Shown here in pieces: positions 52,703-64,000 of a DNA stretch of 64,000 bases. Each line of letters opens with the position of its first letter. The stretch's first letter is position 1. The translations under genes and the position numbers were made by a program. Below the pieces are notes generated by a model that saw only the letters and a list, made by a program, of their open reading frames with translations, had not been told where the DNA came from and searched no databases. Origin of the DNA: Candidatus Lindowbacteria bacterium RIFCSPLOWO2_12_FULL_62_27 (GTDB lineage: Bacteria; Lindowbacteria; 2-12-FULL-62-27); contig MFPR01000020.1 of assembly GCA_001784175.1 (NCBI GenBank), positions 124,001 to 188,000 of the forward strand, read 5' to 3'.

Positions 52703-55183
52703 GTGCCGTGTAAGCACGAGCAGGACGTGAAGGCGGGGTTGTGCACTCGAAGGCCGTATTATCTCTCGGTCTTTCTCTCCATATTGATATGGTCCTCCCT
52801 CGGATCGAGTTCTCTTGCCCTCACTCCCCGAGAGGAACTGCAACAGATTCTGAATCAAATCCCCGCCGAGTGGTGGAACGGCGGATGGGACAAGCTCGCC
52901 GAATTGGAATCGTTTATCCAAGCCTATCCGGATAAACCCGAACTTTGCGCCACGGCGCAGTTTTACATCGGGGCGTATTACAACGGCGTCAAACAATATG
53001 AAAAATCCGTCGAGGCCCATCAGACGTTGCTGACGAAATATCCAACGGCAAAGGAATGCGTGAAATCTCTGTGGGAAATCGGCTATATCCAGCAACATAG
53101 GTTGAAGAACCTGTCTGAAGCTCTTCAGGCCTATAAGCGGATCATCAATCAATATGGAGAGAGCGCCGAGACGCCGAAGGCGATGCTGGCGGCGGGCATT
53201 ATCTATCACCGGGCCAAACAACCCGATGTGGCGATCCAGACTTATCAAGACTTGATCCGAGCACATCCAGAGGCCGATGAATCTCCACGGGCTCTGTTGA
53301 AAACAGGGATCATCTACCGCGAGGTGAAGAAAAGAGATCAGGAACTCCAACCGTATGAGCAGGTGCTTCAAACTTATGGCCACACCAAGTATGCTCCGGA
53401 GGCCAAATTGTTGATCGGCGAATATCATATGCGAGCGAAGGACCATGAGAAGGCCATCGCCATATTTCAGGAAATGATCCAGGATTATCCGAGCGCGGAA
53501 AAAGTGCCGGAGGCATTGATCAATATTGGCGTGTGTTACCGGGAGCAAAGGAAATGGAAAGAGGAGATGACAGCCTATCAGGAGGTGCTGAAAAAATATG
53601 GAAACACGGAATATGCGCCCCGCGCGAAATTTGAGATGGGGGAGTGCTATCAGATCGCGAAGGACTACAACACGGCCATAGAAGTTCTGCGGGATCTGAT
53701 CTGGAAATATCCGAAATCGGAGGAGGCCCCGCGGGCGTTGTTAAAGATCGGGCTTATCTACCGCCAGTTGAATGATTTTGACCAAGAGTTGGCAACGTAC
53801 CAGAAGGTAGTCGAGCATTTTGGAAGCACCAAATACGCGGCGGCCGCCCAACTCAAGATCGGAGGGGTTTACCAACGGGCCAAGAAATACGAGAAAGCGA
53901 TCGAGGCGTATGGTGATTTGGTTAGTAACGTCCCGGATGTGGATGAAGCTCCGCGCGCGCTTATGAACACGGCCGAATGCTATTTATTGTTGAAGGATCC
54001 CGCACGTGCCATCCGGACGTTTCAGCAAGTGAGCGAGTCCTATCCCACAGGCGAATACGCGGCGAGGGCAAAACTCGCAATAGGGCGTCAGTATCTCACC
54101 TTGGGAGAAGTTGAAAAGGCAAGGGCATATCTTTCTCAAGTAGTGTCAGATCAAAAACTGATTCCCGGCCGGCCTTTAATGGAAGCACGTTTGGTGATGG
54201 GAGATATTGCAAGATCAATGGGAGAACGCGGGGAGGCATTCGGTCACTACAAAGAAGCGTATCGTGAGCCATATCACAATGTGAAATTGCTGAAGGAGGT
54301 GATCGAGAAACTATATCACGAATTTTATCACCAAGATCGCAATTATAATCGAGCAAACCGTTTCATCGCGTATCAGGCGTATGGGCCCACCGGAGAAGAT
54401 GGAGCGGGAGGAACAACAGATGACCTGAAAGACCCGTTAATTGAGGATGCGCTTGAGGCGGCGAGCATCATCCAGCGGAGGAATGAGGCATTGAGCCAAG
54501 AGGATTTGTTGGAATTGTTAAGCTATCTATTACCGAAAATAGGCAAGTTTGAGGCGGCCGAAGCCGCGAGCAAAGAAGCGATGTCAATGCAGACAAGTAA
54601 GGCGATTGATCCGACGGTCACGGTAGGGGTACGGGTGACAGCGTTGAAACAGTTGGTGAAGAATGTGGCCGCAAGTCCATTACCAATGAGCCATGTTGAA
54701 TTGTATCGGGAGGCGATCTGGAGAAAGCAGCAGAGATATAGAGATATCATTCCGTTGGTGAGGCAGTCATTGGTGGAGTACGGCGGAGCGACTGCGATTC
54801 GGGAGGTGCAGGCTGAAGCGGAGAATCTGATCGCGAATGCGTATGAACTGCTCGGCGATCTGGATCGAAGCATTCAGGAATATGAGATTCTGGCAAACAA
54901 CGCGCCGACACTGGATTGGGAATTGTTCTGGCGGTTTATTCTGGCCGAGTTATATATTGACAAGGGCGAAGATGAGAAAGGGATATCGATTTATCGCAGC
55001 GTGATTCAGAATCATTTTCAGCATGAGAACTGGCCTGCCTCTGCGCATTTTGAACTGGCGATATATTTCAAGGATATAGGGGAAGTCGCCCAAGCACGTA
55101 AAGAATTACAGGAGATCGTGGCACATTATCCGAAATCGGCATGGTTCGACCCTGCGACAATAAATCTGACGACATGGAAATGA
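52703..55183 (+). CDS. Exported tetratricopeptide-repeat protein
   Basis: Many ~37-aa repeats (YP.S..AP.AL..IG..Y); signal-like N-terminus; exact start uncertain. Confidence 0.85.
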   Translation: MPCKHEQDVKAGLCTRRPYYLSVFLSILIWSSLGSSSLALTPREELQQILNQIPAEWWNGGWDKLAELESFIQAYPDKPELCATAQFYIGAYYNGVKQYEKSVEAHQTLLTKYPTAKECVKSLWEIGYIQQHRLKNLSEALQAYKRIINQYGESAETPKAMLAAGIIYHRAKQPDVAIQTYQDLIRAHPEADESPRALLKTGIIYREVKKRDQELQPYEQVLQTYGHTKYAPEAKLLIGEYHMRAKDHEKAIAIFQEMIQDYPSAEKVPEALINIGVCYREQRKWKEEMTAYQEVLKKYGNTEYAPRAKFEMGECYQIAKDYNTAIEVLRDLIWKYPKSEEAPRALLKIGLIYRQLNDFDQELATYQKVVEHFGSTKYAAAAQLKIGGVYQRAKKYEKAIEAYGDLVSNVPDVDEAPRALMNTAECYLLLKDPARAIRTFQQVSESYPTGEYAARAKLAIGRQYLTLGEVEKARAYLSQVVSDQKLIPGRPLMEARLVMGDIARSMGERGEAFGHYKEAYREPYHNVKLLKEVIEKLYHEFYHQDRNYNRANRFIAYQAYGPTGEDGAGGTTDDLKDPLIEDALEAASIIQRRNEALSQEDLLELLSYLLPKIGKFEAAEAASKEAMSMQTSKAIDPTVTVGVRVTALKQLVKNVAASPLPMSHVELYREAIWRKQQRYRDIIPLVRQSLVEYGGATAIREVQAEAENLIANAYELLGDLDRSIQEYEILANNAPTLDWELFWRFILAELYIDKGEDEKGISIYRSVIQNHFQHENWPASAHFELAIYFKDIGEVAQARKELQEIVAHYPKSAWFDPATINLTTWK

Positions 55184-55319
55184 GATCAAACCAGATGCGG
55201 CTCTGTCGATTAGTGTCTCTTCCGGGCCTGGTGGACATCCCTCACATTCGGTCGATATCGAGGGGCTGGCGAAATGGTCGCACAGCAACAATGAGACGAT
55301 TGTTTCCCTTGGAAATACA

Positions 55320-56318
55320 ATGTCGACTTGGAGTCGACAATCATCAGCCAGCTCCGAAGAGTTTTTCATAAGCATGGCCTCTCAGAACGAGTTTCGAACC
55401 CCTCGGCTTGGGCCGAGGCTCGTTGACATAAAATATGTCCTAAAAATGCTCTTCTGGTTTATGCTATGCTCTGCCATCATGATCATCTTTGTCGTCCCTA
55501 TTGCTATAGCTTGGGTTCGAGTAACAATAACGATTCCCGGCTCTGCGGACAGGTGGTTCGTTTATTGTAACGAAACGGTTACTGTCCACGCGAGAGTTCG
55601 CTCAGGATTATGGAGACCCAACAAAGGACATAATGATATTAGTAATCCTAATTATTATCAAATACCCGTCAGCGTTATATGGTCATTGACCACAGATATG
55701 CCGACGGGCGCGGGTTCTATATCTTCGCCGTCGACCACCGATTCCTATGGTCTTACGACCACCACCTATACGGCTCCAGGTACAACCGGAGGACCTTCCA
55801 AGCTTGGGCATACCACAGTTAACGGATTAACGGCCGCGCCCGGCACTGGAGCAAAAAGCTTCCAAATACGTGGCATCCCCTCGAAACCACCTTCGCCGGA
55901 TCCAAGTGCAACTCAGTTCAGCGACTATCTTGCTTTAGTAAAGAAGTATATTAATCTTTCAACAGAACAAACGGCTAAAGATGTCTTGTCTGAACAGGAG
56001 AATGAATGTCCTGCTATCACATATGATCCTTCGCTGCCTGACACCAGGTCCGGGCTCACAAAAATAGACAAAAATACAAATGCATGTAAATCGGTTTCGT
56101 TTGGGAAGAGCGCGTTACGCGATGTTGATGAGTTTATTAAAACCGTAATACACGAGGCCGGACACATTCGGGCAAAGAATAGCACACAACCGGATAAAGA
56201 TAATGATGGTGCTCGCGAGGATTTTGACTTGGACGACAATTCATGGGAACCGAATGCATTAGAAGATTTTCTTCACCAATTCGAAACAGATCATAATCCC
56301 GGTAATATTTGTAGCTAG
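55320..56318 (+). CDS. Exported protein with Ig-like domain and C-terminal HExxH zinc-metallopeptidase motif
   Basis: Hydrophobic leader from ATG 55446 (probable start), TTDSYGLTTTTYTAP, TVIHEAGH. Confidence 0.65.
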   Translation: MSTWSRQSSASSEEFFISMASQNEFRTPRLGPRLVDIKYVLKMLFWFMLCSAIMIIFVVPIAIAWVRVTITIPGSADRWFVYCNETVTVHARVRSGLWRPNKGHNDISNPNYYQIPVSVIWSLTTDMPTGAGSISSPSTTDSYGLTTTTYTAPGTTGGPSKLGHTTVNGLTAAPGTGAKSFQIRGIPSKPPSPDPSATQFSDYLALVKKYINLSTEQTAKDVLSEQENECPAITYDPSLPDTRSGLTKIDKNTNACKSVSFGKSALRDVDEFIKTVIHEAGHIRAKNSTQPDKDNDGAREDFDLDDNSWEPNALEDFLHQFETDHNPGNICS

Positions 56319-56447
56319 TGTTTAGAAAAATGCCAATAATTGATAACGTGCGATCGGCTTCCTAATGGATGTAGATAAGGGTTTAGAGGTTGCGCGACCA
56401 GACGTACTATTCTGCCGACGAGTAAGGAATTTTACAGGAGGTGGGTC

Positions 56448-57485
56448 ATGATGGTAAGAATGAACAAGGCTCTTCTTTCGTTACTTGCACTGGTTATATT
56501 TACATGTGGTTCGCACAGAAATGCGTACCCAGATGATAAGCCGCATGACGATGATATTGATCAAGTACTCTTTATTAAATCGCCCGATCTGAATACTTTT
56601 ATTCTTCATTACTTGAAGCTTAACATTGATTCTGAAAGGGGAAAGAGAAAATCAGGAGAAGCATTCTCGTTTATATTCTCAGGTCAGTTCAATGATGAAG
56701 AAAGGATGGTGTGGCGAAAGGGCGGTCGGATCGGTCGTGAACCGGCACGGAGTATCTGGAGTCTTCGGAGTGCCGGAAAGGGTGTCTTTCCTGATGGCGA
56801 ACGCCAGACGATGAATGAAACCGTAAGAAAAGTTCTGGCTGATGGGGAGCAAAAAATGAACCCCAGGATACTTAGCACGCAGGGGTCCGGAATGATCTAT
56901 GTGGGCGAGGACAATGATTTCGAATTGGTGAGTATGATTGGTATTTATCCACTGACCAAGCAGGAATTATCGTCATTCCAAGAGGACATTACTTATACGC
57001 CGATTGAATCGGCATATTTGCAGATTGACGAATTATTCTCGAAAGCTGCTTGGACGGTCCCGGCGGATACACCAATCCGACTTGCCATGTTTCTTGTCGA
57101 TCAAATTGCATCTATTGACAGAGCTAGAAATGGACAGAGGGTGAGGATTGTTCCAGCGATTGAAATTTCACATCAGCTACGAGTAAGGGTCAATATCAAC
57201 GTGAGGGGATATCTGGATAAAACGCAACGCTTGCTTTTGGATAAAATAGCGACAAGTTTCAAGGCCTCGACGGAAAAACACAAGTGGATTAAAATATCTT
57301 TTACCGGTGTGGGACTCGTGGAAACGAAAACCAAGGGTCCACTCAGTGATTTTGAGATGGCACTGATTGAATTGTTGGTTGCCGAGATTCAATCGAAACA
57401 GACAGTTGCTGAGATAAAAATAGACGCGAAATTTAACAAGGGCGTGGGCGATGCCAAGAGCGATAACGACGATCATGATAGGTGA
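56448..57485 (+). CDS. Exported hypothetical protein
   Basis: AGGAGG RBS, signal-like MNKALLSLLALVIFTC, 345-aa ORF. Confidence 0.65.
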   Translation: MMVRMNKALLSLLALVIFTCGSHRNAYPDDKPHDDDIDQVLFIKSPDLNTFILHYLKLNIDSERGKRKSGEAFSFIFSGQFNDEERMVWRKGGRIGREPARSIWSLRSAGKGVFPDGERQTMNETVRKVLADGEQKMNPRILSTQGSGMIYVGEDNDFELVSMIGIYPLTKQELSSFQEDITYTPIESAYLQIDELFSKAAWTVPADTPIRLAMFLVDQIASIDRARNGQRVRIVPAIEISHQLRVRVNINVRGYLDKTQRLLLDKIATSFKASTEKHKWIKISFTGVGLVETKTKGPLSDFEMALIELLVAEIQSKQTVAEIKIDAKFNKGVGDAKSDNDDHDR

Positions 57486-57542
57486 CATTTGACACTCTGT
57501 CCGCTCAAATGCTGGCTAATGGCGAATTATCTGCAATAGGGG

Positions 57543-58371
57543 TTATTGCCTTTCGCCAATCCGCTTTATAATTTCAAGCACAAGCTGTGCCGAAATATCT
57601 GCGGCCATGCGGAACTGTTTACTAAAGTCCCCAGTGGCGTTTGAATTCGCCATATCACTGACGCTTCGAAGTGCCAGATATGGCACTCCCTGTTGCCAAC
57701 AAACCTGTGCGATCGCCGCCGCCTCCATTTCAACCGCGTCGGCGTGGAAAACCTTACGCAAAGACGCCTTTTTTGATGGTGAATGAAATAAATAGGTCAC
57801 CGGATACGATAACGCCTTTTAGAATATGTTGGAATCTCCTGAGTTCGTCGCTTGATTTCAGATTTATTGCAGCCGTCTCGGCGATATTCACAAGCCGAAT
57901 GGCAGCCGGGAAGAAATCCGGATTTCTGCTACCGATGATCGGATTTTTGACGCCTCGACTTGTGGTGGCTCCTTTTTCATCCAACGTTCCAAGGTCGTGT
58001 TGAGCCGTTTTCGTTGCAATTACCACGTCCCCAGTGGAGAGTTCCGGGTTGATGGCTCCGGCAACACCCGTCGAAATTACTTCATTGGGTCTAAAGTGTT
58101 CGATGAGGACGGTGGTGGTCATAGCCGCGTTGACCTTGCCGACGCCGGTGGCTGCTATGACAATTTTCCTTCCACCAATTTCTCCAATGTTGAACCTGAT
58201 TCCCTCGATGATGTGCTCCCGACCATTGCCCAAATCTGTTTTTAACAGCTCTACTTCGACATCCAATGCTCCTATGACAGCGGTTATGGAATCTTGCGCA
58301 TGGGCCATCGAATAAAACAACGGCATGTAAAGTAGGATGATGGTTTGTAGGATTCTGAAAAGGGCAGTCAT
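57543..58371 (-). pseudogene. mtnN: MTA/SAH nucleosidase with signal-like leader, frameshifted near 57770-57785
   Basis: IGALDVE, GVGKVNAA, SGDLFI in one frame; AVEMEAAAIAQV, LRSVSD in the +1 frame. Confidence 0.85.
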
Positions 58372-58441
58372 AAAGGTATATGGCCGCTTCTCGGCCGTCG
58401 GACAGTTTTTTATTTGACCTGAACTTGTATCCTGATAAGAC

Positions 58442-58585
58442 TTAATTTCGCGCTCCGGACGCGGCTTGGGATTTCGATATTTTATTGTAGCACCCTTTCC
58501 TGACCTTGGCGGATTGAGGATGCCGCTTTTCAAAAACAGAGAGTTTTTGAGATTTCTTTTTACCACCAGCATAGGCACCGGGCAT
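58442..58585 (-). CDS. Small 47-aa basic protein (not in ORF track)
   Basis: AAAAGGAGG RBS 7 nt before ATG; MPGAYAGGKKKSQKLSVFEKRHPQSAKVRKGCYNKISKSQAASGARN*. Confidence 0.45.
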   Translation of the reverse strand: MPGAYAGGKKKSQKLSVFEKRHPQSAKVRKGCYNKISKSQAASGARN

Positions 58586-58624
58586 AAGTAAGCCTCCTTT
58601 TGAATTATTCTAGTGAATATGAAA

Positions 58625-58774
58625 AATGGAGCCTAGGCTTGCCTTAACAAGCCACGCTTAAACTGGCGAAGTGTCATGGGATGTTAATACTTACTTTCAA
58701 AAATGTAGCGAAAATTAGAACTCGTTCTGGTTTTCGCTGCAACTCATTGCCAGTGAGCGTTTGTTGGCTCCATT
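58625..58774. ncRNA. Putative structured non-coding element adjoining the RT stop codon
   Basis: 9-bp terminal inverted repeat AATGGAGCC/GGCTCCATT enclosing nested stems, including an ~17-18 bp hairpin at 58704-58741. Confidence 0.55.
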
Positions 58775-60284
58775 AGGAAGTCAAGCTAACTCGGCGTTGC
58801 TTGTCAACCTTGCCGCCTTCTATTTTTAAGGTCCGAATCCAGCCCTCCAATTCTTCGGCGGCGTGGGTAAAAAACACACGATGAAAATATTGACCCCACG
58901 ATCTCGCGGTCCGATAGAACAATTCTGTTTTTTCTTCTGGGGTGTAGGGTGATGACAAAATATCAAGAAGTGCTTCCTTGCACAACTCGATGTTTTCTTT
59001 GCTCGGCTGAACCACCCCCTTCTCAATGTCGAATCCAAGCAAAGAGACGGGCTCGGTGTGCACATCGCGGGTTCCGCTCTTGCTCATGTTGATGATGAGT
59101 CCCAAATGGGTCTCAAGATATTCTTTGGCTTGGGTCAGGGTTTTTTCAGCGCCGAACTTTTTTCTGGCCACGAAGGTGACATCGTCGGCAAACCGCACCA
59201 TACGAAAGCCTTTTTGCTTGGCCCACACATCCAGCCGATGGAGAACCATGTTGCCTAGCATGGGCGACAGTGGCCCGCCCTGTGGGACACCCCGACCCCG
59301 CCGAACAAGCTCTCCATTCTCCTTTACGAGCTTGGCTCTGGCCTGGGCCATGATCCATGTGACGAGTCGCCAGTCTCCACGAAGGTCTTGCTTCAAAATC
59401 TTTCTCAATACGGGATGTGGGATCGAATCGAAAAAGTCCTTGATGTCGATGGCCACGACCCAGCGGTATCCCTCGTCCAGATAACTTCTGAAACACCGCA
59501 GCGCGTCGACCGCGCTTCTGCCGGGCCTGAACCCGAACGAAGAGGGCAGGAAGTAGGTTTCGGTGTACGGGCCGAGGACCTCGAACATCGCCGCCTGAAT
59601 GAGATGGTCTCGGACGGCGGGGATGGCCAATTCACGAACCCGCCCGTCCTTCTTGGGGATGAGCTTCTGCCGCAGCGGCCTGGGCTGAACCTGGTCCTCC
59701 AGAAATCGTTGCCGGACATCGTTGATAAACTCATCATGATTCTTAATCCGGTCGACGGATATCCCATCAACCCCGGCCGCCGGCCCGCGTTGCAGCAATC
59801 TATGCATGGCCGACTCCAGGACAAATCGTTGAGGGATCAGCGCCGACAACGGGAAGCGGATGGGATAATAGATGGACAACGACGCCGGTATGCCGCCGCG
59901 CCGAAGAGAGATCATGGCGCCTTTGGCCCTCCGCATATCGCCCGTGGGCGCCGGCGTGCGGATTCGACAGTCGCCGCCGTCCTTCGGCCGGATCAAAATT
60001 TCGCCGTTTTCGTAAGCGATGGCCGCAGGATAGAAATGAACACGGGACGCGTACCGTTGCGGAACCCATGCGTCTATGTCCCGTATGACAGGGAAGAAAT
60101 ACGGCAGTTTGGGGATGAAAAGTTTTTCCTCGTAGGGAAGGATTTCGTCCGGCTGAACACTGTCGCTTGTCAGCGCCTCCTGGAGTTGCCGTTCGGACAA
60201 TTGGGCCAGCATGAGGCGCGTGTCCGGCGCGGCAGACAAATAGTCTGTTATCACCTCTGCCAATAGCGGTGGGGGCTTGGTCAA
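58773..60284 (-). CDS. Group II intron-like reverse transcriptase with N-terminal extension
   Basis: RT0 AAGVDG, IPKKDGRVRELAIPAVRD, SFGFRPGRS, DIKDFFDSI, GVPQGGPLSP, RFADD, LLGFDI, thumb-like RSWGQYF; no HNH domain. Confidence 0.93.
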   Translation of the reverse strand: MTKPPPLLAEVITDYLSAAPDTRLMLAQLSERQLQEALTSDSVQPDEILPYEEKLFIPKLPYFFPVIRDIDAWVPQRYASRVHFYPAAIAYENGEILIRPKDGGDCRIRTPAPTGDMRRAKGAMISLRRGGIPASLSIYYPIRFPLSALIPQRFVLESAMHRLLQRGPAAGVDGISVDRIKNHDEFINDVRQRFLEDQVQPRPLRQKLIPKKDGRVRELAIPAVRDHLIQAAMFEVLGPYTETYFLPSSFGFRPGRSAVDALRCFRSYLDEGYRWVVAIDIKDFFDSIPHPVLRKILKQDLRGDWRLVTWIMAQARAKLVKENGELVRRGRGVPQGGPLSPMLGNMVLHRLDVWAKQKGFRMVRFADDVTFVARKKFGAEKTLTQAKEYLETHLGLIINMSKSGTRDVHTEPVSLLGFDIEKGVVQPSKENIELCKEALLDILSSPYTPEEKTELFYRTARSWGQYFHRVFFTHAAEELEGWIRTLKIEGGKVDKQRRVSLTS

Positions 60285-62683
60285 CGATCACCCTCACCCC
60301 AGCCCTCTCCCGCAAGCGGGAGAGGGGGAGGGGCGCCGGTCAATTCGGTGCCTGTATCCAGATTTCGGGCGATGTGAATTCTCTGGCCGGCGTCTCTGAT
60401 TGCTTCCAGCCGGTAGACTACAAAAAATATGGCGCATTTATAAATTTCAGAAAATTCCCGGAGCAGTTCAAGGATTTCCGTTTCCAAGCCGGGGTCCAGG
60501 GCGTCGATGACCTCGTCCAGCAGCAAGATTTTTGGCCTGCGCAGGAGCGCGCGCGCCAAGGCCAATCGTTTCCGTTCTCCGTGGGACAGCGATTGTGGGC
60601 CATCCAGTTTCAGGAGCAGCCCGCCCCGCCGCTCGATCATGTCCCATAATTTTACCTTTCTCAGAATTCCCTCGGCTTCGTCGGCGTCCGGCGGTCGGTT
60701 CAGTCCCAAGGACAGATTTTCCAGGACCGTGCCGTGAACGATCACGTCATCCGTTGGGACCATGACGACATGATTGCCCCATTCGATTTCACCGATTGAA
60801 TGGATCGGGATTTTGTCGATTCTGATCTCTCCGCTCGTGGGTAGAACGGTTTGATTTAGAACCAGCAGGAAAGTCGTCTTCCCTGCCCCGCTCGGTCCTG
60901 TGATCGCCGTCAATCCCTCCAATCTGTATTTCCCATGTACCGTCCAAAGAAGATGGCCGCCGTCTGGAGCATAACAAGTCAGCTTTTCCAAACGCAGGGT
61001 CTTGGGATTCTCGGGGAATTTTTCCCGGCCGGGCGCGATGCCGTCCATGGCGTCGTGTTGCCGATAGACCTCAAGGAACCTTCTGGCCCTGACAAGCACC
61101 CGCTGGATGTCCGGGCCGATATCGAACAGATCGAGGATGGGCGACAGGATCAGGGCGAACCAAGCGCCGATTCCAAAGGCGAAGCCCGGATCGAGTTCGC
61201 CATTTTTGACCGCAAGGATGGCCTGAACGATCAAGAGGACCGGCCCGATGGTCGCCAATGCATGGACCGCGACGTGGACCGCGCCGGATATGATTTGAAG
61301 TTTGACCTGTTCGTCCCTGAAGGGCGATGCCTTCTCTCGTACCCGGCGAAGCGCGTCTCGCAGGATGCGCATGGCGCGGATCGAATCCGCCTTGCCAAGA
61401 ACCTCCACCATCCGTTCGTTGGTCTGGCCGCGCAGACGCGCTATGCCCCACGAGTAGTGATAAACAAGGGCGCTGAAAACGGCGTATAAAACACCGATGA
61501 CTACGACGAGAACGGTTAGTTGTACGACGAAGTTCAGCGGCAACATAAACAGAAAAATCGGCAGTGGAAGCAAATGGGCCAGCCCTGTCGCAAATGTTGT
61601 GACGATTGAAATGGTTCCATCGAAGGCGGCATCGGCGTCGTCGAATCGCGTCAACAACTCCCCGGCCGGGTAACGCGTTTTGCGCTTCAGGACTCGTTGC
61701 ACAAATTTCAGTTGCCATTGCAGCCACAAGGAACTCACGGCGGAGGATTCGTAGGCTTCTTTCGTTGCGGAAACAACCAAGCCCACAACGACCAATAGTC
61801 CGATGATCCCGGCGCCCATGAGAATTTCGTTTATTTCGCCCGCGTGCCATATCGACGCGATGAGAAACGGCACAGGAACGAGGAGCAATGAGGAGACGAT
61901 GTCGAAAACGAACAATGTGGCGGGAATTCGCCAGTAAGGTTTCAGGAGCCGCAGCATTCCAAAGATGGGCCAGAGGCGCGATCTTTCCTGCCGGAAAAGG
62001 TCTGTAAAGAAAGTGAACGGGTGCCAGAAAACAGATAAGGGTCCGAAACGTTCCTGTGACATCCATCGTCGTGTAAACGACCTCGGCGGTGGAAAAGTCT
62101 CTTTCAAAATATTGATGAACCGATGAAGTCCTTCCAGTTTGTCGGCGATGTTGTTCAACCGGACCACGTCACCAGCCGTGATGGATAGTTGCAAGTCGAT
62201 GTCAGCCAGCCGGGGAATTCTTTGGCCCGGTGGCGGGGCCCATCGACAGGCCAGTGCGAAGGCCGCGTCGATCGCCGCCCAGAGCGCGATGTCAAGAAGG
62301 GGGAGAGCATCCGCGCTGCCGCCCGCCCGAAGCGCCGCGTCCCGTTTTGAAAAAAAGTCTTCCCACAGACTTGCGGCCTCTGACGGGGTGAGGGGATGGG
62401 GTCTTTCCCACGCTTGGGATGCCATCGATATAAACGTGTCGGCCATGCCGGAAACAGCTTTCCCCTGAGCGATCTTTCGGAAGAAGGGGCCGTTTCGTTG
62501 TCTTCGCGCCGTTATTCTCTCTATGAGGTCGCTTCGGCTCGTGTAATCGACAACGAAGTCCCGGACGTTCTCCGAGTGGGTCTCTCGGGTTCTCGGGCCG
62601 GCGGTTGTGACAACCAGAAATTCGTTGTCCGAGAACCGGATGACCGCTTCTGTTCCGGAGGACTTTAGAAAATCAAGAGCCAT
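60281..62683 (-). CDS. ABC exporter (TMD+NBD, type I secretion/bacteriocin-export-like) with unknown ~240-aa N-terminal domain
   Basis: TMD from LRLLKPYWR, GELLTRF; Walker A GPSGAGKT, LSHGERKRLALARALL, Walker B ILLLDE. Confidence 0.9.
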   Translation of the reverse strand: MALDFLKSSGTEAVIRFSDNEFLVVTTAGPRTRETHSENVRDFVVDYTSRSDLIERITARRQRNGPFFRKIAQGKAVSGMADTFISMASQAWERPHPLTPSEAASLWEDFFSKRDAALRAGGSADALPLLDIALWAAIDAAFALACRWAPPPGQRIPRLADIDLQLSITAGDVVRLNNIADKLEGLHRFINILKETFPPPRSFTRRWMSQERFGPLSVFWHPFTFFTDLFRQERSRLWPIFGMLRLLKPYWRIPATLFVFDIVSSLLLVPVPFLIASIWHAGEINEILMGAGIIGLLVVVGLVVSATKEAYESSAVSSLWLQWQLKFVQRVLKRKTRYPAGELLTRFDDADAAFDGTISIVTTFATGLAHLLPLPIFLFMLPLNFVVQLTVLVVVIGVLYAVFSALVYHYSWGIARLRGQTNERMVEVLGKADSIRAMRILRDALRRVREKASPFRDEQVKLQIISGAVHVAVHALATIGPVLLIVQAILAVKNGELDPGFAFGIGAWFALILSPILDLFDIGPDIQRVLVRARRFLEVYRQHDAMDGIAPGREKFPENPKTLRLEKLTCYAPDGGHLLWTVHGKYRLEGLTAITGPSGAGKTTFLLVLNQTVLPTSGEIRIDKIPIHSIGEIEWGNHVVMVPTDDVIVHGTVLENLSLGLNRPPDADEAEGILRKVKLWDMIERRGGLLLKLDGPQSLSHGERKRLALARALLRRPKILLLDEVIDALDPGLETEILELLREFSEIYKCAIFFVVYRLEAIRDAGQRIHIARNLDTGTELTGAPPPLPLAGEGWGEGDR
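60290..60333. repeat. REP-like palindromic element inside the 3' end of the ABC gene
   Basis: CCCTCACCCCAGCCCTCTCCCGCAAGCGGGAGAGGGG; same family as 9112-9149. Confidence 0.75.
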
Positions 62684-62689
62684 GGGGGG

Positions 62690-63472
62690 CTATTGTCCAA
62701 ACTTGATAACCGCTCCCTCCGGCCTTTGGGCCAGGAGCACACCAAACAGAGAGCCTTTGTAATGTACGGCCTCGACGACCACTTCCGATCCGATTGGAGG
62801 GACGGTCGTATCCGTGAATGCGACGGTGCAGTTGACATGAGATTCATAAGAACGGTTCGGCCGGATGAGGCCAACACCCCGGAAAACAACTCTGCCTGAA
62901 TAACGCTTGCCCCAGACATCCGTTATCGAAACAAGAGAGCCTTCGCCAAACGCCCTAAACCCGCGTTCGGGCACAGGCACATCAATTGTCGGAGAATCCG
63001 ATTGATAAATACGAAACAGCGGTCGGTCTTCGATGACCGTGCGGCCTTCCTCCAAAAAATCGAATAATTCGACGATCCCGGTCACGGGTGCGCGAAGAAC
63101 CACGGCCTTCATATTCTCTTCGAGCCGCTGCATCCGCGTTTTGACGTGTTCATCTCGCGGGAGCGGTATGTCAATCCATCCAGTTTCGAGTTTGGATTGT
63201 AAAGATGAGATTTCATCTGCGAAGCCGCCCGTATCCAGAATCAGGACGGGATCGCCCGCAGAAACCTTCACGCCTGTTGAGGCGACGATTTTTTTCAGAG
63301 GCGCCTTAAACGGTGCGGAGACCAGGATGGTCTTGCCGGTCACTGTTCCGGCCGCCGGAACCACGATGCGGACGGGAACGAATATTGTCAGGGCGACAGC
63401 GACCATGACCGCGAGGCCCAAAACGGTCCTGCCGATTCGAGCGATGAATTTGGGTGAAATCCAGCGGTTCAT
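62690..63472 (-). CDS. HlyD-family membrane fusion protein (short)
   Basis: N-terminal TM, lipoyl-like halves VSAGDPVLILD and LRAPVTGIV around a short helical hairpin. Confidence 0.78.
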   Translation of the reverse strand: MNRWISPKFIARIGRTVLGLAVMVAVALTIFVPVRIVVPAAGTVTGKTILVSAPFKAPLKKIVASTGVKVSAGDPVLILDTGGFADEISSLQSKLETGWIDIPLPRDEHVKTRMQRLEENMKAVVLRAPVTGIVELFDFLEEGRTVIEDRPLFRIYQSDSPTIDVPVPERGFRAFGEGSLVSITDVWGKRYSGRVVFRGVGLIRPNRSYESHVNCTVAFTDTTVPPIGSEVVVEAVHYKGSLFGVLLAQRPEGAVIKFGQ

Positions 63473-64000
63473 TCTTCCACGTCCGTCGATTTTTCTTCAA
63501 TCAGTTCCTTGTTCAAGGCGACAAGAGACGATCCCGGTGAGCCCGGATAGGGCGTTGGATTCTCCATAAACAGTCTGTCGCACTGGGGACAGCTTGTCAC
63601 ATCCGGCTGTAAATCGAGAGACCTCTTTTTTCCATCCTCGCGCGGTGGGACAAGGTGAACGAAACTCGACGGCGAGTACCATTCGGCGGGAGGCTTGCCG
63701 CCCACGCGCCTGAGAAGGTCCTCCGCCAGATCCAACAGCGTCTTCACCGCGCTCATGAACGCCGTTTTTGAAGCGGAGGCTCGGCCAAGATAAGGCGACA
63801 TGCCGCGGGCCAGGTCGTGACTGTTGGTGATCCGGCGGCTGATGCTCGCCACTTCCAGATAAATCTTGAACAGGAGGTCCATCGATTGGTCCCCTCGGGC
63901 CAACAGTTCATTGAGGTTGTCGATCCACGTATCGAGACGAATCCGGTGATGGAACAATTCGCGCGATGGGATGAGGCGCGTTCGATGAGCGTTCTCGGCG
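63469..64000 (-). CDS. Hypothetical protein, 5' end beyond window, C-terminal CxxC
   Basis: Frame stays open to the window edge (AENAHRTRLIPSRELFHHR..); CPQC; ATGA overlap with the HlyD gene. Confidence 0.65.
   Translation of the reverse strand, partial: AENAHRTRLIPSRELFHHRIRLDTWIDNLNELLARGDQSMDLLFKIYLEVASISRRITNSHDLARGMSPYLGRASASKTAFMSAVKTLLDLAEDLLRRVGGKPPAEWYSPSSFVHLVPPREDGKKRSLDLQPDVTSCPQCDRLFMENPTPYPGSPGSSLVALNKELIEEKSTDVEE

Follow-up and report, generated by a model that had tools for sequence, protein, structure and literature searches.

Group II-like (G2L) reverse transcriptases (RTs) are defined as RTs that are nearest to those of group II introns and stand without intron RNA structure (PMC2602772, PMC8632793, in the parts available to us). 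The neighbourhoods described for them in the accessible part of PMC8632793 hold queuosine-pathway, YaaA and sulfatase genes, not transporters. We have analyzed a 64,000-nt stretch of the genome of Candidatus Lindowbacteria bacterium RIFCSPLOWO2_12_FULL_62_27 (G000:C20:124001-188000, hereafter the window) together with the next 20 kb beyond its end, and report a cassette of four tightly packed minus-strand genes in the order gene A, HlyD-like adaptor, ABC exporter and RT. Like the G2L RTs, e.g., G2L4, as far as these are covered by the sources at hand, the cassette RT is nearest to group II intron RTs, is found without intron RNA and has kept the thumb/X domain; unlike them it carries a private N-terminal extension of 150 amino acids (aa), reaches no more than 38.6 bits with the solved G2L4 RTs and is the last of the four genes of an exporter cassette. 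A domesticated group II-like RT is a known kind of enzyme, and its context of an exporter and a gene with a nucleotidyltransferase fold is new in the literature searched, as far as that was accessible. We propose that a domesticated RT lineage has become fixed in an exporter cassette which most likely is a conflict system (anti-phage or abortive infection, or directed against competitors), a reading to which we give about an even chance.

The RT is recognised by Pfam RVT_1 (2.8e-29). Its best NCBIfam model is TIGR04416, the group II intron RT/maturase (242.1 bits against a cut-off of 300, aligned over residues 156-485), and the closest solved protein is the RT of the GsI-IIC intron (165.7 bits over residues 155-485, through the thumb); the Cas6-RT-Cas1 protein scores 90.4 bits. 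With this model on top and this structure as the closest, the group II type that a preliminary description of the locus, made from the sequence alone, had assigned to the RT is well founded. The protein is built from the N-terminal extension (residues 1-150), the fingers and palm with RT0-7 and the FADD motif, and the thumb/X domain, and a weak GIIM match (E 0.016) covers the last 85 aa. Its C-terminus lies 18 aa past the thumb alignment, leaving neither a D (DNA-binding) nor an En (endonuclease) domain. The RT thus resembles the RTs of mobile group II introns in that RT0-7 and the thumb align with them and differs in the lack of a ribozyme, of D and of En, in being single-copy in the genome and in an identity of at most 40% to them among the matches listed.

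A search of 5.8 billion clustered proteins gave only three clusters close to the RT (P0002, 72% identical; P0003, 71%; P0004, 70%; 754-850 bits), and after these three the match scores fall from 754 to 192 bits. The remaining matches listed (P0005-P0120) are 31-40% identical to the RT and all contain the maturase domain PF08388, which is not annotated in any of the four members of the RT family. The four members align from their first residues and share the start. Their core is 75-79% identical, with RFADD and more than 200 columns invariant, and the 150-aa extension is coding, private to the four and 58-69% conserved. The closest homologues are therefore not ordinary intron RTs, as the nearest three, at 70-72%, share the private extension. 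Residues 60-121 of the extension (window 59922-60107) gave a marginal match (E 0.02) to PDB 3i4q, which we take to be a family I inorganic pyrophosphatase; the acidic residues aligned to 3i4q are not conserved in the RT family, and the match is a lead only. No relatives of the RT family were found in the GTDB species genomes and none of the extension in plasmids.

In a quick maximum likelihood (ML) tree of 56 RTs the four members form one clade (SH-aLRT 100) whose stem measures 2.63 substitutions per site, and this clade is not nested within any sampled intron clade. The tree comprises the four family members, 39 of the 116 matches P0005-P0120 (every third) and 13 RT open reading frames (ORFs) from this genome and other sampled genomes, loci L003, L010 and L018 not being among them because they were set aside or yielded no ORF with the motif. 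The preliminary description had proposed to place the RT among named reference clades: a separate clade with support of 100 was obtained, and a named clade cannot be assigned in a tree that contains no references labelled as G2L, CRISPR or UG.

The features of the cassette and its immediate surroundings, in window coordinates and in the direction of transcription, are as follows:

63469 to 64000, minus strand: 3′ part of gene A (ORF; the whole gene, 297 aa, lies at L004:1469-2362)
62690 to 63472, minus strand: HlyD-like membrane-fusion adaptor, 260 aa (HlyD_3, TIGR01843, RND_mfp and 8dck_C matches)
60281 to 62683, minus strand: ABC exporter half-transporter, 800 aa (ABC_tran, ABC_membrane; BmrA alignment)
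61964 to 62683, minus strand: additional cytoplasmic domain at the N-terminus of the ABC protein, residues 1-240 (no Pfam match; ESM Atlas comparison)
60303 to 60326, no strand assigned: core of a REP-like palindrome at the ABC/RT junction (junction sequence; genome copy count)
58773 to 60284, minus strand: reverse transcriptase, 503 aa, TTG start (RVT_1, TIGR04416, GsI-IIC RT alignment)
58621 to 58775, minus strand: predicted structured RNA from the RT stop codon (fold z -4.47; single-copy)
58442 to 58585, minus strand: basic ORF of 47 aa (ORF with a strong Shine-Dalgarno sequence)

Gene A and the adaptor gene overlap by ATGA at 63469-63472 (junction sequence GAAGAATGAACC), the adaptor stop TAG is followed by 6 nt, CCCCCC, and then the ATG of the ABC gene, and the ABC stop and the RT start overlap by TTGA at 60281-60284 (junction sequence CGTTGACC). 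All three junctions of the four packed genes are as first described. The first gene, introduced there as a CxxC protein, is present as well, and only its extent had to be revised: the end of the window cuts it, and it continues for a further 362 nt, up to G000:C20 188362, to a full 297 aa. Upstream of gene A follow a divergent TPR gene and a peptide deformylase gene, and the unit is therefore one of four genes. Three features that went unmentioned in the preliminary description are the nucleotidyltransferase fold of gene A, the domain added to the N-terminus of the ABC protein and the repetitive extragenic palindromic (REP) element at the ABC/RT junction.

This palindrome reads CCCTCTCCCGC-TT-GCGGGAGAGGG on the coding strand of the junction and belongs to a family (CCCTCTCCC...GGGAGAGGG) with 109 copies in the 4.39-Mb genome, one of them 7 kb away (e.g., G000:C20:191164-191190). 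It encodes about the last 17 residues of the ABC protein, ...PLPLAGEGWGEG (also given as ...PLPLAGEGWGEGDR), and supplies the purine-rich stretch before the TTG of the RT. The ABC protein has three close clusters (P0124, 78% identical; P0125, 72%; P0126, 56%), after which the scores drop to 104 bits, and the same kind of palindrome-derived tail is found in one of the three, P0125, and not in P0124 and P0126. Because the palindrome encodes the ABC tail and two of the three homologues lack such a tail, we consider the TTGA overlap recent and incidental, a by-product of the repeat and no old signal of coupling. The REP hairpin may lower the expression of the RT relative to that of the ABC gene. 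Read in frame, members of the palindrome family add PLP..GEG..G tails to ORFs, and public unitig-type contigs break at palindrome copies, where their depth is very high.

We then compared the occurrence of the RT with that of the exporter. For the RT relative P0002 and the ABC relative P0124 the records give one Logan contig each, with a common source and a length of 24,048 nt in both cases; for the RT relative P0003 and the ABC relative P0125 they give one contig each of 6,920 nt. Two exact matches in size are very unlikely by chance, and we therefore take RT and ABC to lie on the same contigs in two further lineages, so that homologues of the exporter do co-occur with an RT, as the proposal of the preliminary description demanded. 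Both proteins have diverged alike in the shared lineages (72 and 71% identity for the RT, 78 and 72% for the ABC protein).

These observations have to be weighed against the possibility that the genes are independent neighbours, i.e., that a stand-alone domesticated RT, acting in repair like G2L4 or as a single-gene defence of the type of the defence-associated RTs (DRTs), lies downstream of an unrelated efflux operon and that the shared contigs reflect inherited synteny. In the accessible part of the G2L4 literature this RT works alone (PMC12337344), and such a reading would suit relatives that have diverged by only 22-30%, the weak TTG start of the RT and the REP hairpin between ABC and RT, an element typical of intergenic 3′ ends. 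It is harder to reconcile with the 6,920-nt contig, on which RT and ABC can be no more than ~3 kb apart and no more than ~3 kb remains for other sequence, and with the region between ABC and RT, where no sigma-70-like promoter site was found. RT, ABC and gene A are moreover equally narrow in distribution. The phylum sample consists of four genomes (G000-G003) of four genera in one family, and all three genes are absent from the other three genomes, which are 81-91% complete: gene A was found in 0 of 3, the ABC matches reach 26-27% identity at best and leave the N-terminal domain uncovered, and the RTs are ordinary ones, of which the best match the cassette RT at 37% in G002 and G003, with none in G001 at E<=1e-20.

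A further point against independent neighbours comes from gene A. On L028, a 1.6-kb fragment from a relative, gene A and a TPR gene are divergent (L028:7-723 and 1356-1589), and this TPR gene is homologous to window 52703-55183, which lies 3.5 kb beyond the RT. The arrangement differs, and the changed position of gene A with respect to this conserved TPR gene is a hint of a rearrangement or relocation of the cassette. Taken together we hold independent neighbours to be rather unlikely. Within the cassette the RT is a fixed and conserved component, and the cassette, whose DNA occurs in groundwater and soil metagenomes, is restricted to few uncultured lineages of these habitats and very rare.

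Having placed the RT next to the RTs of group II introns, we searched the locus for an intron RNA. Over positions 57500-64000 Rfam gave at E<=10 four rows at chance level, none of them an intron family, and group-II-D1D4 and Intron_gpII gave no match in two short scans with the laxest filter, one of the RNA after the RT stop and the other of the 5′ region and the junction. In the control, seven of eight ordinary intron-RT loci, including L002 and L003 from the same genome, gave group II domain matches above the gathering score; L006 gave none. In agreement with the preliminary description the RT does not lie within an intron RNA. L002 (G000:C10:17856-21593) is an ordinary group II intron with D1-D4 of class 6 and domains V/VI, and L003 (G000:C4:227877-231164) an ordinary one with domains V/VI.

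These searches also bear on whether the RT could be the remnant of a decaying group II intron that had inserted behind the terminator-like REP hairpin of the ABC gene. Insertion behind terminator-like hairpins is known for some bacterial group II introns, ordinary group II introns occur in the genome (L002, L003), and a hairpin with AGC near its base in the RNA downstream of the RT loosely recalls intron domain V. Ribozyme domains were, however, not found on either side, permissive scans included; the 450 nt before the RT domain are protein-coding and conserved; the catalytic motifs are invariant across four lineages; and the family, of which the genome has one copy, forms a long branch of its own. 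A decaying intron is thus largely refuted and in our view extremely improbable. As judged from sequence, the RT descends from group II intron RTs, has lost the ribozyme and the DNA-binding and endonuclease domains and has gained the private 150-aa extension. Because its nearest relatives are group II intron RTs and no intron RNA is present, it is, by the operational definition and with no G2L-labelled references in the tree, a new G2L lineage.

The other classes of domesticated RTs do not accommodate it. The retron models score far under their cut-offs (retron_St85_RT 72.6 bits against 235, Ec67 53 against 450), as do those of the DRTs (Drt3a 48.1 against 200, Drt2 44.6 against 390, Drt4 19.4 against 450, Drt5 16.5 against 550); overall the retron and Drt models give 16-73 bits against cut-offs of 200-600. 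The UG17 model of PADLOC, for which no cut-off is stated, scores the RT at 114 bits. No direct repeat longer than 28 nt that could serve as template and variable repeat of a diversity-generating retroelement (DGR) was found in 14 kb around the cassette. No CRISPR or tandem arrays were found within ~10 kb on either side, and the ORFs beyond 64000 contain no cas1; thus the cas1 or CRISPR locus that might have lain just outside the window is not there. In the genome cas1 matches are confined to contigs C6 and C4, and the one at G000:C6:52155-53030 falls into an open frame of 581 aa, longer than plain Cas1, which may be a fusion.

With retrons, DRT/UG systems and AbiA/K the locus shares an RT, a possible adjacent structured RNA, effector genes and a sporadic distribution; it differs in that its RT falls outside those clades and in that its candidate effector is a membrane exporter with adaptor, which is not described there in the sources as far as accessible. 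A system of an RT and an ABC/HlyD exporter was not found in the literature searched, in the parts available and with supplementary neighbourhood tables outside that scope. The available text of PMC8632793 makes no mention of ABC, transporter or secretion and that of PMC2602772 none of transporter or membrane; the sole transporter mentioned in the available text of PMC8934634 is an MFS transporter near retrons. Within these sources the architecture is, as the preliminary description had supposed, not a described system.

Gene A, whose ATG start is confirmed by L028, remained without any Pfam, NCBIfam, PADLOC or PDB match on the sequence level. Pfam gave nothing below E 0.029 for nine gene A relatives, and a search of the gene A profile against the PDB sequences returned only rows at chance level. 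The AlphaFold2 (AF2) model computed from the nine-sequence family (pLDDT 79.7), however, found clear structural counterparts among the PDB entries with Foldseek, namely the 'nucleotidyltransferase-like' protein 3c18 (E 5e-7), ANT(4′)/kanamycin nucleotidyltransferase (KNTase; 5e-5 to 5e-4) and HalB of the Hailong system (1.4e-3). VIA gave Z scores of 12.1 and 11.4-11.9 over 203-216 residues for structures of the 3c18/KNTase type, 8.9 for HalB and 8.2 for the MntA antitoxin; aminoglycoside and lincosamide nucleotidyltransferases are among the structural matches. An ESM Atlas comparison agrees with a nucleotidyltransferase-like fold. In the alignment E55, G59, R61, G63, F109, D110, G221, G222, C258, C261 and R263 are invariant, the last three within the C-terminal CxxCxR tail. 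By these models gene A is predicted to encode a cytoplasmic protein of nucleotidyltransferase fold that has the two domains of KNTase/ANT(4′) and ends in a CxxC tail.

Residues 1-228 superpose on both domains of KNTase/ANT(4′) and 3c18; unlike these, gene A shows an identity of 8-13% with no match on the sequence level, does not show the canonical motif (G-[GS] followed by D-x-[DE]) as conserved at the expected positions of the sequence alignment and has the extra CxxC tail. The likeness to Hailong is that of a nucleotidyltransferase-fold protein in a system with a DNA product, HalB being a nucleotidyltransferase which makes oligodeoxyadenylate; unlike the cassette, Hailong has neither an RT nor an ABC exporter, and the HalB match is mainly to the N-terminal domain of gene A (86 residues at the Z of 8.9). 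Relatives of gene A are scarce. The word-indexed search gave one close cluster (84%), 1.84 billion representatives contained eight, seven of them (P0223-P0229) at 29-41%, and none were found in GTDB species genomes, IMG/VR viral contigs or plasmids. In the JGI metagenomes the search for relatives gave nothing beyond the contig of the window itself and a fragment of 1.6 kb.

The ABC protein is matched by Pfam ABC_tran (2.8e-24) and weakly by ABC_membrane (1.1e-4). Its core of transmembrane and nucleotide-binding domains (~232-778) aligns with residues 7-556 of BmrA and has about six hydrophobic, presumably transmembrane (TM), segments. Walker A, the LSHGE signature and the Walker B glutamate are intact. 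The histidine of the H-loop, present in all three homologues, is Tyr757 in this genome (codon 60413-60415). The CydC, MsbA and bacteriocin-exporter models score the protein far under their cut-offs, and type_I_sec_HlyB gives 92.6 bits against 725.55. The adaptor has a single N-terminal TM helix (residues 20-38), and its matches to HlyD and RND adaptor models are weak and all far under the cut-offs (HlyD_3, E 1.3e-3; TIGR01843, type_I_hlyD, 29 bits against 208.65; RND_mfp, 30.5 bits); PDB 8dck_C, a membrane fusion protein of the HlyD type, is matched at E 5.3e-5 over residues 17-97 only. With 260 aa it has about half the length of HlyD (478).

To the exporter core an N-terminal domain is added (residues 1-231 are extra), for which Pfam gave no match at E<=10. 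It occupies the position of the cargo-recognising domain of bacteriocin and haemolysin exporters. In the ESM Atlas comparison its model reaches TM-scores of 0.59-0.66 to NTP_transf_2/KNTase_C clusters over ~200 residues. For the AF2 model of the domain the best Foldseek row is again 3c18, at E 0.13, with no match at E<=0.001, and the profile of the domain returned only chance-level rows from the PDB sequences. Conservation of the domain is 51-75%, and a stretch S18-[DE]19-x-[ED]21 is conserved; it is similar to the S-D-I-E motif of KNTase. A local alignment of gene A with this domain was no better than shuffles, and hhalign gave a probability of 0.4%. We lean towards a nucleotidyltransferase-like fold also for this domain and treat it as a lead from structure models.

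The cassette thus resembles the HlyB/HlyD and PCAT1 exporters in having a half-transporter with a cytoplasmic N-terminal domain and an adaptor gene just upstream. It differs from them in that this domain has no C39 match and may be nucleotidyltransferase-like, in the RT of the operon, in the short adaptor and in its surroundings, in which neither a TolC-like nor a substrate gene was seen among the ORFs within 10 kb, the search for TolC being confined to these ORFs.

The structural matches of gene A to aminoglycoside and lincosamide nucleotidyltransferases and the likeness of the ABC core to multidrug exporters such as BmrA could also indicate a pump for drug or toxin resistance, in which KNTase-like proteins would bind or modify an antibiotic and ABC and adaptor would expel it, with a side role or none for the RT. 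In the gene A alignment, however, the canonical catalytic motif is not conserved at the expected positions, and such a pump would leave the co-conserved RT and its private extension unexplained; we consider it very unlikely.

Immediately downstream of the RT a structured RNA is predicted. A segment of 205 nt that starts shortly ahead of the RT stop folds with -58.9 kcal/mol (z -4.47), a value reached by none of 200 shuffles. In a scan of 53 windows the element has the lowest z (-4.5), the 52 local windows having a mean of -0.39, a standard deviation of 1.24 and a minimum of -3.67. As a fold prediction the structured element noted earlier at the RT stop is real. In the predicted structure a 9-bp stem, which begins in the RT stop codon (AAUGGAGCC/GGCUCCAUU), closes a structure with several branches, and UUUUU comes next. 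The genome has a single copy of the element, and no Rfam family was found for it at E<=10 except a chance-level RatA row on the other strand. The predicted RNA may act as terminator, as RNA partner of the RT or in both ways. The basic 47-aa ORF in the gap before the nucleosidase gene is present as originally reported, with the strong ribosome-binding site AAAGGAGG 7 nt before its ATG. It has no paralogue in the genome and no Pfam match, and no tie between it and the cassette was found; a double-glycine leader was considered and dropped since the GG at residues 7-8 is too near the N-terminus.

A structured RNA beside the RT, a true six-TM exporter core with a periplasmic adaptor, and an ABC N-terminal domain that sits at the cargo-recognition position of PCAT/HlyB-type exporters and may have a nucleotide- or 3′-OH-binding fold could together form a product-export machine. 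RT and nucleotidyltransferase-fold modules would make a DNA, RNA-DNA or nucleotidylated product, which the ABC N-terminal domain would recognise, much as C39 or C39-like domains recognise cargo, and the exporter with its adaptor secrete. In the boldest form of this reading the neighbouring structured RNA would be the template that the RT copies into DNA, and the nucleotidyltransferase-fold modules would hold or tail the 3′ end of the copy. With secretion of a nucleic-acid or nucleotidylated RT product by ABC and adaptor, an RT would for the first time be found to supply an ABC exporter. The adaptor is, however, of half size, the fold of the N-terminal domain is uncertain, no TolC-like or substrate gene was seen within 10 kb, and we know of no ABC exporter that moves nucleic acid; secretion of such a product is in our view quite unlikely.

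The cassette has a guanine plus cytosine (GC) content of 55-58% against 61.3% for the genome and adjoins a stretch of 42-48% GC. This low-GC stretch (55000-59000) overlaps the 3′ end of the RT gene and contains genes for two secreted-looking proteins, at 55320-56318 (with a HEAGH motif) and at 56448-57485. A PNP_UDP_1 nucleosidase gene (57543-58578, minus strand) is split into the overlapping frames 57754-58578 and 57543-57800, which looks like a frameshift; contigs of three runs (X2, X3, X6) show no differences there, and the N-terminus of the nucleosidase resembles a signal peptide. A transposase-like ORF of 498 aa (L004:11008-12504), about 9 kb from the cassette and beyond it, is, by eye, of the insertion sequence (IS) type. 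Integration linked to a tRNA gene was considered and rejected, as there is no tRNA within 20 kb.

The genetic linkage of the RT to the exporter is supported by the data, and every biochemical step of the following scheme is one that we infer. The RT would copy an RNA into DNA, and this template may be the structured RNA that directly follows the RT gene. Gene A and perhaps the ABC N-terminal domain, as modules with a nucleotidyltransferase fold, would bind or extend the 3′ end of the nucleic acid so made, and recognition of this end would control the ABC/adaptor machine, which would act as membrane effector. Pairs of nucleotidyltransferase-fold proteins and membrane effectors are a known theme in defence, Hailong being an example. 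In the accessible parts of PMC2602772 and PMC8632793 nearly all characterised non-intron prokaryotic RTs have roles of the conflict or defence type. We favour a role in conflict or defence because nearly all characterised non-intron prokaryotic RTs have one, because the cassette is sporadic and compositionally foreign, and because the pairing of nucleotidyltransferase and membrane effector is known.

Several observations weigh against a conflict system built around the RT. The co-location in the two further lineages is read from matching contig sizes, in which gene order and strand are not seen, and with relatives as close as about 70-78% identity shared synteny could be plain inheritance. At the junction itself the Logan contigs listed from four runs are identical to the window and break at the REP hairpin, and none of the contig pieces listed extends across the hairpin with 31 nt to either side. 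The cassette is not flanked by known defence genes; next to it are TPR proteins, the nucleosidase, the peptide deformylase, an IS and others, and PADLOC gave no match on the system level. In the nine-sequence alignment of gene A the G-[GS] and D-x-[DE] motifs of nucleotidyltransferases vary, by inspection, at the expected positions, other acidic residues (E55, D110) being invariant. The fold of the ABC N-terminal domain comes from one ESM-based comparison, the AF2 model from four sequences being poor (pLDDT 45), and the RNA element is a fold predicted from the sequence of this genome. Given the tyrosine in its H-loop, the local ABC copy may furthermore be impaired, with poor hydrolysis of ATP.

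The domesticated prokaryotic RTs solved so far, i.e., retrons, DGRs, CRISPR-RTs, DRTs and G2L4, each showed an unexpected use of reverse transcription. In the cassette described here the cargo-recognition position of an ABC exporter is taken by a domain unlike known peptidase domains. Since the cassette belongs to a tiny uncultured phylum from groundwater, heterologous expression is the sole route to a functional test. If the link between RT and exporter is functional, it would add a new type of effector to RT-based immunity or provide RT products with a way out of the cell.

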